Source: Escherichia coli
GTDB lineage: Bacteria > Pseudomonadota > Gammaproteobacteria > Enterobacterales > Enterobacteriaceae
Direction: 5' to 3' (one strand)
Length of the DNA stretch: 64,000 nucleotides
NCBI RefSeq assembly: GCF_003334385.1
Contig: NZ_QOWN01000016.1
A program made the position numbers and the translations under genes. The notes under the pieces were generated by a model that was given only the letters and a program-made list of their open reading frames with translations, was not told where the DNA came from and did no database searches. Below, piece by piece: positions 29,188 to 64,000 of this stretch. Positions within the stretch are counted from its first letter, which is position 1. Each line of letters opens with the position of its first letter.

Positions 29188-31524
29188 ATGAAGCAAATTC
29201 GTCTGCTGGCGCAGTATTATGTTGACCTGATGATGAAGTTAGGTCTGGTGCGCTTCTCAATGTTGCTGGCGCTGGCCCTCGTCGTTCTTGCCATTGTGGT
29301 ACAAATGGCGGTAACCATGGTGCTGCATGGTCAGGTCGAAAGCATTGATGTTATTCGTTCTATCTTCTTTGGTTTGCTGATTACGCCGTGGGCGGTCTAC
29401 TTTCTATCGGTGGTCGTCGAGCAACTGGAGGAGTCACGACAACGTCTGTCACGGCTGGTGCAAAAACTGGAGGAGATGCGCGAGCGCGATTTGAGCCTCA
29501 ACGTTCAGTTAAAAGATAATATTGCCCAGCTAAATCAGGAAATTGCCGTTCGTGAAAAAGCGGAAGCAGAACTGCAGGAAACCTTCGGCCAACTGAAAAT
29601 TGAAATCAAAGAGCGCGAAGAGACACAAATTCAGCTCGAGCAGCAATCCTCATTCTTACGTTCCTTCCTTGATGCTTCACCCGACCTGGTTTTTTATCGT
29701 AACGAAGATAAAGAGTTTTCCGGCTGTAACCGCGCGATGGAGCTGCTGACCGGAAAAAGCGAAAAACAACTGGTTCACCTGAAACCTGCTGATGTTTACT
29801 CACCGGAAGCCGCCGCAAAAGTCATTGAAACCGATGAAAAAGTGTTCCGTCATAATGTGTCACTGACCTATGAACAGTGGCTGGATTACCCGGACGGGCG
29901 CAAAGCCTGCTTTGAAATCCGTAAAGTGCCGTACTACGACCGCGTGGGTAAACGTCACGGTTTGATGGGCTTTGGTCGCGACATTACCGAGCGTAAGCGG
30001 TATCAGGATGCGCTTGAACGGGCCAGCCGCGACAAAACGACGTTTATCTCCACCATCAGTCACGAATTGCGTACACCGCTGAACGGTATCGTCGGTCTGA
30101 GCCGCATTCTGCTGGATACCGAACTCACCGCCGAGCAGGAAAAATATCTCAAGACCATCCATGTTTCGGCCGTCACGCTGGGGAATATCTTTAACGATAT
30201 TATCGACATGGATAAGATGGAACGGCGCAAGGTCCAGCTTGATAATCAACCGGTTGATTTCACCAGCTTCCTTGCCGATCTGGAAAATCTCTCCGCATTG
30301 CAGGCGCAACAAAAAGGATTGCGCTTTAACCTGGAGCCGACGCTGCCATTACCGCATCAGGTCATTACCGACGGGACGCGTTTACGGCAGATCCTGTGGA
30401 ACCTCATCAGTAACGCCGTCAAATTCACCCAGCAAGGCCAGGTTACCGTGCGCGTGCGCTACGATGAAGGCGATATGCTGCATTTTGAAGTGGAAGACTC
30501 TGGTATCGGCATTCCGCAGGATGAGCTGGATAAAATTTTCGCCATGTATTACCAGGTGAAAGACAGTCATGGCGGTAAACCTGCCACCGGCACCGGTATT
30601 GGTCTGGCCGTTTCTCGTCGTCTGGCGAAAAATATGGGCGGCGATATTACGGTTACCAGCGAACAGGGCAAAGGTTCAACCTTTACGTTGACGATCCACG
30701 CACCGTCGGTAGCAGAAGAGGTCGATGATGCGTTTGATGAAGACGATATGCCTTTACCGGCGCTGAATGTGCTGCTGGTGGAAGACATTGAACTGAACGT
30801 GATTGTTGCGCGTTCTGTGCTGGAAAAATTAGGTAACAGCGTTGATGTCGCCATGACCGGCAAGGCGGCGCTGGAGATGTTTAAACCGGGCGAATACGAC
30901 CTGGTGTTGCTGGATATTCAGTTGCCAGATATGACCGGGCTGGATATCTCTCGTGAACTGACGAAACGTTATCCGCGCGAGGATTTACCGCCGCTGGTGG
31001 CCTTAACCGCTAACGTGCTGAAAGACAAACAAGAGTACCTCAATGCTGGAATGGATGATGTGCTGAGTAAGCCGCTTTCTGTTCCGGCGCTAACCGCGAT
31101 GATCAAGAAATTCTGGGATACCCAGGATGATGAGGAGAGTACGGTGACGACAGAAGAGAACAGTAAATCAGAAGCATTGCTCGATATTCCCATGCTGGAA
31201 CAGTATCTCGAACTTGTAGGACCGAAGCTGATCACCGACGGGTTAGCGGTGTTTGAGAAGATGATGCCGGGCTATGTCAGCGTGCTGGAGTCGAATCTGA
31301 CGGCGCAGGATAAAAAAGGCATTGTTGAGGAAGGACATAAAATTAAAGGTGCGGCGGGGTCAGTGGGGTTACGCCATCTGCAACAGCTGGGTCAGCAAAT
31401 TCAGTCTCCTGACCTTCCGGCCTGGGAAGATAACGTCGGTGAATGGATTGAAGAGATGAAAGAAGAGTGGCGTCACGACGTAGAAGTGCTGAAAGCGTGG
31501 GTGGCAAAAGCCACTAAAAAATGA
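29188..31524 (+). CDS. arcB: aerobic respiration control sensor histidine kinase ArcB
   Basis: 778-aa ORF; TM-PAS-HisKA-HATPase-receiver-HPt architecture. Confidence 0.95.
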   Translation: MKQIRLLAQYYVDLMMKLGLVRFSMLLALALVVLAIVVQMAVTMVLHGQVESIDVIRSIFFGLLITPWAVYFLSVVVEQLEESRQRLSRLVQKLEEMRERDLSLNVQLKDNIAQLNQEIAVREKAEAELQETFGQLKIEIKEREETQIQLEQQSSFLRSFLDASPDLVFYRNEDKEFSGCNRAMELLTGKSEKQLVHLKPADVYSPEAAAKVIETDEKVFRHNVSLTYEQWLDYPDGRKACFEIRKVPYYDRVGKRHGLMGFGRDITERKRYQDALERASRDKTTFISTISHELRTPLNGIVGLSRILLDTELTAEQEKYLKTIHVSAVTLGNIFNDIIDMDKMERRKVQLDNQPVDFTSFLADLENLSALQAQQKGLRFNLEPTLPLPHQVITDGTRLRQILWNLISNAVKFTQQGQVTVRVRYDEGDMLHFEVEDSGIGIPQDELDKIFAMYYQVKDSHGGKPATGTGIGLAVSRRLAKNMGGDITVTSEQGKGSTFTLTIHAPSVAEEVDDAFDEDDMPLPALNVLLVEDIELNVIVARSVLEKLGNSVDVAMTGKAALEMFKPGEYDLVLLDIQLPDMTGLDISRELTKRYPREDLPPLVALTANVLKDKQEYLNAGMDDVLSKPLSVPALTAMIKKFWDTQDDEESTVTTEENSKSEALLDIPMLEQYLELVGPKLITDGLAVFEKMMPGYVSVLESNLTAQDKKGIVEEGHKIKGAAGSVGLRHLQQLGQQIQSPDLPAWEDNVGEWIEEMKEEWRHDVEVLKAWVAKATKK

Positions 31525-31636
31525 CCCCGGCTAGACCGGGGTGCGCGAATACTGCGCCAACACCAGGGAAATCTTGGCTGCGCCGTAAATTATTATGATG
31601 AGTTACAAGGGCACAGCACTGTTTTTCAGGCCGCAC
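31516..31636 (-). ncRNA. arcZ: ArcZ small RNA (Hfq-dependent), convergent with arcB
   Basis: Minus strand reads GTGCGGCCTGAAAAACAGTGCTGTGCCC...GCGCACCCCGGTCTAGCCGGGGTCATTTTTT, matching the ArcZ sequence I recall (121 nt); T-run overlaps the arcB stop codon. Confidence 0.85.
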
Positions 31637-31753
31637 GCAGTTAAGATAGCAAAACTTAAATGATTTGTTACATGAATCAGTTAAATGTGTGATGCGTACC
31701 ATTTTTATTAAAAAAATTAATGTGTTTCAGTCAATTGCGAAAGGATGATCACA

Positions 31754-32407
31754 ATGAAGAAAATTGGCGTAATTCTGAGCGGATGCGGCGTCTATGACGG
31801 TTCTGAAATTCATGAAGCGGTGTTGACGTTGTTAGCTATTTCACGCAGCGGTGCGCAGGCGGTCTGCTTTGCACCGGATAAGCAGCAGGTTGATGTTATC
31901 AACCATTTAACTGGCGAAGCGATGACGGAAACGCGCAATGTGCTGATTGAAGCGGCACGAATAACGCGCGGTGAAATCCGTCCTCTGGCCCAGGCCGATG
32001 CCGCTGAACTGGATGCGTTGATTGTGCCGGGGGGGTTTGGCGCGGCGAAGAATTTAAGCAATTTTGCCAGTCTTGGTAGCGAATGCACCGTTGACCGTGA
32101 ATTAAAGGCGCTGGCACAAGCGATGCATCAGGCCGGAAAACCGCTTGGTTTTATGTGTATTGCCCCGGCGATGCTGCCGAAAATTTTCGATTTCCCGCTG
32201 CGTTTGACCATCGGTACTGATATCGATACCGCAGAAGTGCTGGAAGAGATGGGCGCGGAGCATGTGCCGTGTCCTGTCGATGATATCGTGGTTGATGAAG
32301 ACAATAAGATTGTCACCACCCCAGCATATATGCTGGCGCAGAACATTGCAGAAGCGGCGAGCGGCATTGATAAGCTGGTTTCCCGCGTGCTGGTTCTGGC
32401 TGAATGA
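31754..32407 (+). CDS. elbB: DJ-1/PfpI-family protein ElbB
   Basis: ORF 31745..32407; start at [22 protein letters not shown], 217 aa. Confidence 0.85.
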
Positions 32408-33132
32408 GTAAAAGCCGCTTAACGGTGTTTAGTTTCGTTCGCCGTTTTCTTTTGCGGTTAATGGTTGTCCTCGCCGTTTTCTGGGGCGGGGGCATCGCGT
32501 TGTTTAGCGTTGCGCCTGTTCCCTTCTCAGCGGTAATGGTCGAGCGACAGGTCAGCGCCTGGCTGCATGGCAATTTTCGTTACGTGGCACATTCTGACTG
32601 GGTCAGTATGGATCAAATCTCGCCGTGGATGGGACTGGCGGTGATTGCCGCAGAAGATCAGAAATTTCCTGAGCACTGGGGCTTTGATGTCGCTTCCATT
32701 GAGAAAGCCCTGGCGCACAACGAGCGCAATGAAAACCGTATTCGCGGTGCTTCAACGATTTCTCAACAGACAGCCAAAAATCTCTTTTTATGGGATGGGC
32801 GTAGCTGGGTTCGAAAAGGGCTGGAAGCCGGATTAACGCTGGGGATAGAAACGGTCTGGAGCAAAAAGCGTATCCTGACGGTTTACCTGAATATCGCCGA
32901 ATTTGGCGACGGTGTGTTTGGCGTCGAAGCTGCGGCACAACGTTATTTCCACAAACCCGCGAGCAAACTTACCCGGTCGGAAGCTGCATTACTGGCAGCT
33001 GTATTACCTAATCCACTTCGTTTCAAAGTCTCCTCGCCATCGGGCTACGTGCGTAGCCGTCAGGCGTGGATTTTACGGCAGATGTATCAGTTAGGCGGTG
33101 AGCCGTTTATGCAACAACACCAGCTGGATTAA
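32404..33132 (+). CDS. mtgA: monofunctional peptidoglycan glycosyltransferase
   Basis: 242-aa ORF; N-terminal TM helix and GT51 transglycosylase motifs. Confidence 0.9.
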
Positions 33133-60054: not shown

Positions 60055-60141
60055 GCCGAGGTGGTGGAATTGGTAGACACGCTACCTTGAGGTGGTAGTG
60101 CCCAATAGGGCTTACGGGTTCAAGTCCCGTCCTCGGTACCA
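60055..60141 (+). tRNA. leuU: tRNA-Leu (anticodon GAG)
   Basis: GCCGAGGTGGTGGAATTGGTAGACACGCTACCTTGAGGTGGTAG...GGGTTCAAGTCCCGTCCTCGGTACCA; long variable arm, 3' CCA; co-transcribed with secG. Confidence 0.95.

Positions 60142-63923: not shown

Positions 63924-64000
<77 letters not shown>

Follow-up and report, generated by a model that had tools for sequence, protein, structure and literature searches.

The window analysed here is a 64,000-nt stretch of an Escherichia coli contig (NZ_QOWN01000016.1). Its plus strand carries arcB (29188..31524), which encodes a sensor kinase of 778 aa and is matched over its full length by the ArcB equivalog model NCBIfam NF008302 (1483 bits vs a cutoff of 838), followed by the ORFs of ElbB (31745..32407) and MtgA (32404..33132), both assigned by equivalog models. 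Convergently with arcB, the minus strand reads from 31636 to 31516 as GUGCGGCCUGAAAAACAGUGCUGUGCCCUUGUAACUCAUCAUAAUAAUUUACGGCGCAGCCAAGAUUUCCCUGGUGUUGGCGCAGUAUUCGCGCACCCCGGUCUAGCCGGGGUCAUUUUUU, a 121-nt RNA which starts at G31636 with GUGCGGCCUGAAAAAC and has its 3' end, CCCCGGUCUAGCCGGGGUCAUUUUUU, at 31516. This interval (31516..31636, minus strand) is identical in 121 of 121 positions to the curated arcZ gene of E. coli K-12 (b4450, NC_000913.3 3350577..3350697), annotated in that record as "ncRNA arcZ, b4450, small regulatory RNA ArcZ", and the flanking 1501 nt around arcZ are also identical between the window and NC_000913.3. The whole window was scanned with Rfam release 15, and four matches exceeded their gathering scores, among them ArcZ (RF00081), which matched the minus strand at 31529..31636 with model positions 1-106 of 106, a score of 120.8 bits against a gathering score of 66 bits and E = 4.1e-27. 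This E value, taken together with the K-12 identity, places the ArcZ match far beyond chance. The 3' boundary given by Rfam, 31529, lies 13 nt before the true end of ArcZ because the model stops inside the terminator loop. A megablast search with 31400..31760 as the query recovered the arcZ locus in 5417 of 5426 complete E. coli genomes, and in K-12 MG1655 and many other E. coli strains the locus was 100% identical. With virtual certainty, what lies here is arcZ, a gene once named sraH/ryhA, which has its own promoter and a terminator U-run complementary to the end of arcB. An earlier note, made from the letters alone, had already read a 121-nt ArcZ on the minus strand; the covariance-model match and the complete identity to b4450 bear this out, the coordinates it proposed are exactly those of the K-12 reference annotation, and the Rfam scan, which it had named beforehand as the refuting test, returned ArcZ well above the gathering score.

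The 3' end of ArcZ is formed by a Rho-independent terminator, the hairpin of which, ACCCCGGU-CUA-GCCGGGGU (31524..31542, minus strand), was located by a terminator scan. Its stem, running from 31542 to 31524, comprises 8 pairs, 6 of them G-C, around a loop of 3 and is followed by CATTTTTT; it is the only intrinsic-terminator-like site which the scan found in 31300..31900. The UCAUUUUUU tail (31516..31524, minus strand) contains the U-run, is the expected Hfq-binding 3' end and is the complement of arcB AAA AAA TGA. The 3' end of arcB reads ...GCC ACT AAA AAA TGA, with the TGA stop at 31522..31524, and the overlap of the two genes amounts to 9 nt (31516..31524, AAAAAATGA), which correspond to Lys777-Lys778-stop. 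The overlap in the K-12 reference is likewise 9 nt, as arcZ extends to 3350697 and arcB (3350689..3353025) starts from 3350689. The convergence of ArcZ with arcB and the overlap between its terminator and the arcB stop codon, both claimed in the earlier note, were confirmed by the plus-strand position of the ArcB equivalog and by the 9 nt shared with a minus-strand terminator. The claim that a GC hairpin and a U-run together cover the last arcB codons is correct for the U-run and UCA, of which the overlap is made, and needs amendment for the hairpin, which lies just downstream of the arcB stop with only its last base (31524) inside the stop codon.

Neither the terminator scan nor inspection found an intrinsic terminator on the plus strand between the arcB stop and the elbB start. 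Read on this strand, the hairpin is preceded by an A-run and followed by UGCGCG, and it therefore does not qualify as a canonical arcB terminator. A weak arcB terminator composed of the antisense of the ArcZ 5' stem and ACUGUUUUU (UUUUU, 31622..31626, plus strand) was considered and not adopted; it is non-canonical, with a loop of about 26 nt and a U-run beginning 4 nt past the stem, and the ArcZ A-run behind it lacks conservation between genera. No report of bidirectional termination at arcZ/arcB emerged from a literature search. Since no plus-strand terminator precedes elbB, polymerases transcribing arcB probably cross the arcZ gene and its promoter, and therefore both antisense RNA effects and occlusion of the arcZ promoter are possible.

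Within ArcZ, consensus sites of RNase E (RN↓WUU) occur at nt 63-68 (AGAUU, GAUUU), and their predicted 3' products of 57 and 56 nt agree with the published active form of 56 nt. This processed form (…CCAAGA↓UUUCCCUGG…; 31516..31571, minus strand), placed by the RNase E consensus sites and by PMC11331407, is predicted from folding to contain a single-stranded 5' seed, a short 4-bp GCGC/GCGC hairpin and the terminator. Directly after the RNase E site lies the conserved core CCCUGGUGUUGGCGCA (ArcZ nt 69-84; 31553..31568, minus strand), described as the seed, or target-pairing region, and as the determinant of unique RNase E cleavage (PMC11331407). Upstream of the processed form, a 5' stem-loop with the arms GCUGUGCC/GGCGCAGC around an A/U-rich loop (31573..31618, minus strand) is given by the structure line of the Rfam alignment; that it masks the seed until cleavage is a hypothesis from PMC11331407. 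The predicted folding energy of full-length ArcZ is -42.3 kcal/mol, with a modest z of -2.7 vs shuffles.

Conservation was assessed with the 16-mer CCCUGGUGUUGGCGCA, which was scanned against one genome per species in the GTDB collection (298 Gb) and was found at a minimum of 120 loci. Many of these belong to unrelated phyla and are chance matches, which a 16-mer is bound to give in a collection of this size. Among the matches listed, 56 loci were linked to arcB, all of them in other species of Enterobacterales; their genera include Escherichia, Citrobacter, Enterobacter, Kosakonia, Serratia, Yersinia, Dickeya, Erwinia, Pantoea, Photorhabdus, Xenorhabdus, Proteus, Providencia, Morganella, Edwardsiella, Hafnia and others. 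The C-terminus of ArcB follows directly after the 16-mer on the opposite strand in 56 of 56 of the matches listed. The extent of the overlap varies among these listed matches: the ArcZ U-run and arcB share 9-11 nt in 43 of 56 species, where ArcB ends in Lys-Lys-stop and the UCA or UUA that follows the hairpin is complementary to the stop codon (TGA or TAA); 3 of 56 have a 2-nt overlap; and 9 of 56 (several Pantoea, a Tatumella, Mixta, Rosenbergiella, Hafnia and Pluralibacter) have none and are still convergent. An apparent 23-nt overlap in Pantoea sp. 1.19 is not reliable, being based on a partial match. The usual overlap of the ArcZ and arcB 3' ends has been given as ten bases, with exceptions (PMC11331407), and the sizes observed here match this statement. 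As a side observation, ArcB Lys-Lys-stop coincides with the ArcZ U-tail in those 43 species with a 9-11-nt overlap, and most of the listed species without such an overlap have different ArcB C-termini.

For 55 sequences, an alignment was built from 150 nt upstream of the 16-mer and 58 nt from its start onward. The 3' 56 nt are nearly invariant in these 55 sequences, partly owing to the selection of the loci by the 16-mer, and the 5' half of ArcZ is highly variable. Pairing holds in 99.5% of the cells of the terminator stem (55 sequences, among the matches listed), and two stem positions show double changes from G-C to A-U, in 13 and 12 of the listed species; pairing of the scored terminator pairs falls to about 38% once the partner is slid by one column. 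The 5' stem of the orthologues has 7-12 bp in the same place and is made of unrelated sequences in most genera, for example UUUACUCGCC/GGCGAGUAAA in Photorhabdus, AACCUGC/GCAGGUU in Serratia and UUUUACUCACCA/UGGUGAGUAAAA in Arsenophonus. As far as the aligned sequences indicate, such a rebuilt stem represents strong qualitative covariation despite the modest per-sequence z-scores, the median folding z-score of the orthologue 5' halves being -1. Judging from this alignment, compensatory changes preserve the pairing in both the terminator and the 5' stem. The GCGC hairpin shows no variation in the alignment and is therefore uninformative on covariation. When 17 syntenic loci from other genera were scored with the Rfam model, only 5 reached its gathering score, and therefore a miss by this model would be unsafe as a refutation of ArcZ outside Escherichia and its close relatives.

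The arcZ promoter region (31637..31692, minus strand) was delimited by inspection of hexamers and by the alignment. It contains an extended -10 element, TGcTATCTT, at -15..-7 from G31636, and a -35-like GTAACA separated by a 17-bp spacer. A scan for consensus sigma-70 promoters found none at arcZ, because 8 of the 12 hexamer positions match and the scanner needs 9. In the 55 sequences among the matches listed, TTGCTAT is invariant and the upstream block CACACATTTnAnTGAnTCnTGTAACAA is conserved at a level of at least 90%. This block is a candidate operator for ArcA-P, as a repressor such as ArcA-P would be expected there, and binding of ArcA-P to the arcZ promoter has been described (PMC11331407). 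When the upstream block was inspected visually for a canonical ArcA box, in which two TGTTA-type repeats are spaced by 11 bp, only imperfect half-sites with a spacing of 12-13 bp were seen. The U6 3' tail and the nearly invariant promoter-proximal block are consistent with both Hfq dependence and repression by ArcA-P.

These features suggest the following course of events. Transcription of arcZ would begin at G31636 on the minus strand, driven by the gene's own sigma-70 extended -10 promoter, and would stop at the Rho-independent terminator at 31516. ArcZ is known to bind Hfq and to yield its active form of 56 nt on cleavage by RNase E (PMC11331407); in the strain studied here, the 121-nt primary transcript bound by Hfq would be cleaved just 5' of UUUCCCUGG, leaving a stable 3' fragment whose single-stranded, near-invariant 5' end (CCCUGGUGUUGGCGCA) would pair with targets. 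By pairing with positions -91..-63 of the rpoS leader, ArcZ opens the hairpin in which the RBS is sequestered and prevents premature termination by Rho (PMC11331407), and by this route the 56-nt ArcZ would raise the translation of rpoS. When duplexes with the rpoS leader were computed for -140..-40, the best one lay at -88..-52 and overlapped the published site, an optimum that is equalled by 130-371 of 1000 shuffled seeds and is not significant; over the whole 567-nt leader, the best duplex was placed near -426, where the leader is GC-rich, and was equalled by shuffled seeds in 479 of 500 cases. These duplex energies speak neither for nor against the rpoS interaction, for which the support is published genetics (PMC11331407). 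The same fragment would repress flhDC, mutS, tpx, sdaC and eptB, all of which are described as repressed by ArcZ, and would act against the sRNA CyaR, the degradation of which is triggered by ArcZ (PMC11331407). At low oxygen, phosphorylated ArcA would repress arcZ transcription, as reported for ArcA-P (PMC11331407). The identity and boundaries of ArcZ, its terminator, the overlap, the conserved promoter, the conserved convergence with arcB and the structural covariation were determined in this analysis; Hfq binding, RNase E processing, the targets, the control by ArcA and the feedback with arcB are derived from the literature.

Two other readings of the interval were weighed against an independent sRNA gene. 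The hairpin stands directly after the arcB stop codon, and the interval might thus be taken for the 3' UTR and terminator of arcB only, with no RNA gene of its own. The U-run, however, follows the hairpin on the minus strand only, the plus strand having UGCGCG there; the promoter with its invariant extended -10 is conserved on the minus strand, where the covariance-model match is also found; and the curated K-12 annotation, together with published 5'RACE and Northern data, defines an independent transcript, so that we attach almost no probability to this reading. A small protein encoded on the minus strand is just as hard to credit, either as a 62-aa ORF at 31514..31702 or as a GUG-initiated leaderless frame spanning ArcZ. 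An ORF is mechanically present, and the frame is open from G31636 to a stop just past the terminator U-run, but the ATG of the 62-aa ORF (31702) precedes the site where transcription begins, the RNA extends no further than the stop codon, and no NCBIfam match was found. Moreover, the 5' halves of the orthologues show non-triplet indels as well as compensatory changes in pairs, as is typical of an RNA stem, and in the 3' part it is the nucleotides that are conserved, with no exception for third codon positions. The interval is best read as arcZ.

The work cited as the source for the mutual regulation of ArcZ and arcB is reportedly that of Mandin and Gottesman from 2010. In PMC11331407 and PMC3937726, ArcZ and arcB mRNA are described as regulating each other negatively in a feedback loop, and the effect is presented in terms of a destabilization of the antisense arcB mRNA and of an antisense role of that mRNA; in the strain studied here, ArcZ and arcB mRNA would accordingly be expected to repress each other and so close the loop. 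The overlap could instead act mainly by transcriptional interference, arcZ and arcB polymerases colliding or occluding each other and thereby lowering transcription directly. The two units do converge with 9 bp in common, no plus-strand intrinsic terminator was found before elbB, so that polymerases leaving arcB probably traverse arcZ and its promoter, and the reported mutual negative regulation (PMC11331407) would fit such a mechanism. Against this, polymerases transcribing ArcZ stop only 9 bp into the very end of arcB and cannot block a full-length arcB coding transcript, PMC11331407 and PMC3937726 describe a post-transcriptional antisense effect and not polymerase collision, and the 9 of 56 species without overlap, among the matches listed, are still convergent. 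Transcriptional interference with arcB is plausible, then, but published work favours antisense post-transcriptional effects, and we consider it unlikely to be the main way in which the overlap acts. An arcB transcript which reads through arcZ would be a perfect complement to ArcZ, seed included. We suggest, tentatively and as something short of an even chance, that arcB transcripts read through arcZ, that their 3' UTR acts as a cis-antisense sponge setting a threshold for ArcZ, and that the need for a U-tail holds the Lys-Lys of ArcB in place. The antisense idea has already been speculated upon in the literature, and novelty would be limited to two details, namely read-through for want of a terminator and the dual-coding constraint.

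As a major regulator dependent on Hfq, ArcZ connects the sensing of oxygen (ArcAB) with motility, mutagenesis and the general stress response (RpoS), and the understanding of it is unchanged by the present results. Their importance is one of annotation only. The expectation in the earlier note that a protein-only annotation would miss ArcZ holds, as the PGAP RefSeq records of E. coli, another MG1655 assembly included, show arcB and elbB only, and arcZ is present only in the curated K-12 record; in thousands of E. coli genomes annotated by PGAP, these two genes are likewise the only ones at this place. Where the sRNA is recognised, the spacer between arcB and elbB is not mistaken for empty. Deletion or tagging of the arcB 3' end will damage ArcZ, and vice versa. 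Two small by-products emerged alongside, namely the coincidence of ArcB Lys-Lys with the ArcZ U-tail and an arcB gene without an intrinsic terminator of its own before elbB.

Summarizing, the RNA encoded at arcB is an already known, textbook sRNA at its expected locus. Compared with ArcZ as known (SraH/RyhA, RF00081, K-12 b4450), the sequence, length, strand, terminator and 9-nt overlap are all the same and no difference was found; the neighbours are equal too, with arcB convergent and elbB divergent. DsrA and RprA resemble ArcZ as Hfq-dependent activators of rpoS that open the inhibitory leader hairpin and oppose Rho (PMC11331407). They differ from it in that their sequences are unrelated, their inputs are low temperature and the Rcs phosphorelay, respectively, they are active without RNase E processing, and they are not antisense to the gene of their own regulator. 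The sRNAs matured by RNase E, such as MicL, share with ArcZ an active 3' fragment carrying the terminator and the Hfq-binding tail (PMC11331407). Unlike sRNAs of the MicL type, ArcZ has its own intergenic promoter and is not cut from an mRNA, and its 3' end overlaps a convergent coding sequence.

The ArcB protein ends in Lys-Lys-stop in all 43 species in which arcB and arcZ overlap by 9-11 nt (56 related loci among the matches listed), and the terminal AAA AAA codons are the complement of the ArcZ U-tail (window 31516..31524). In species lacking such an overlap, however, the ArcB C-termini are mostly different (RQ, RR, KP, GK, QS, QR, KQ, DK, and EK). This pattern suggests a dual-coding constraint where the Lys-Lys end of ArcB coincides with the U-tail of ArcZ.

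On the + strand, a canonical intrinsic terminator was not found in the spacer that separates arcB from elbB (31525..31744), so that arcB transcripts would have to cross arcZ in the antisense direction, and this read-through would possibly continue into elbB-mtgA. At approximately 31583..31626 (+), a hairpin of non-canonical form precedes a UUUUU run. On the opposite strand, mechanical ORF calling gave a 62-aa frame (31514..31702, -) that covers both ArcZ and its promoter; from the GUG at ArcZ +1 onward, this reading frame is open across the entire RNA. As a gene, this ORF was judged spurious, with no NCBIfam match and with non-triplet indels in the orthologues.

Outside Escherichia, the Rfam ArcZ model (RF00081), applied at its gathering score, missed 12 of the 17 loci from other genera, namely L005, L006, L029, L056, L057, L073, L087, L090, L091, L099, L121, and L122, which belong to Yersinia, Photorhabdus, Dickeya, Moellerella, Arsenophonus, Tatumella, Mixta, Erwinia, Xenorhabdus, Proteus, Edwardsiella, and Hafnia. 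The invariant 3' region of ArcZ, the terminator, and the convergent arcB are nevertheless present in all 12 missed loci, and the model appears to be too narrow in the variable 5' half of the RNA. The arcZ promoter block, which is conserved elsewhere, aligns with the Yersinia artesiana locus but not with the promoter region of the Yersinia aldovae locus (L005), where an insertion or rearrangement may have taken place upstream of arcZ. A second copy of CCCTGGTGTTGGCGCA, the conserved 16-nt ArcZ core, occurs away from arcB in Serratia oryzae (L050), Pantoea sp. 1.19 (L069), and Mixta sp. (L086). The Rfam ArcZ model gave no hit at gathering score at these second sites, which are probably chance or coding matches.

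Other RNAs are also present in the window. An Rfam greA leader (RF01769; 53281..53402, +) was matched at 127.5 bits, where the gathering score is 60, and its 3' end forms a terminator-like hairpin with a U-run, with the greA gene expected downstream. The tRNA-Leu (anticodon GAG; 60055..60141, +) and the tRNA-Met (anticodon CAT; 63924..64000, +), which reaches the last base of the window, presumably correspond to leuU and metY, in agreement with the K-12 gene order.
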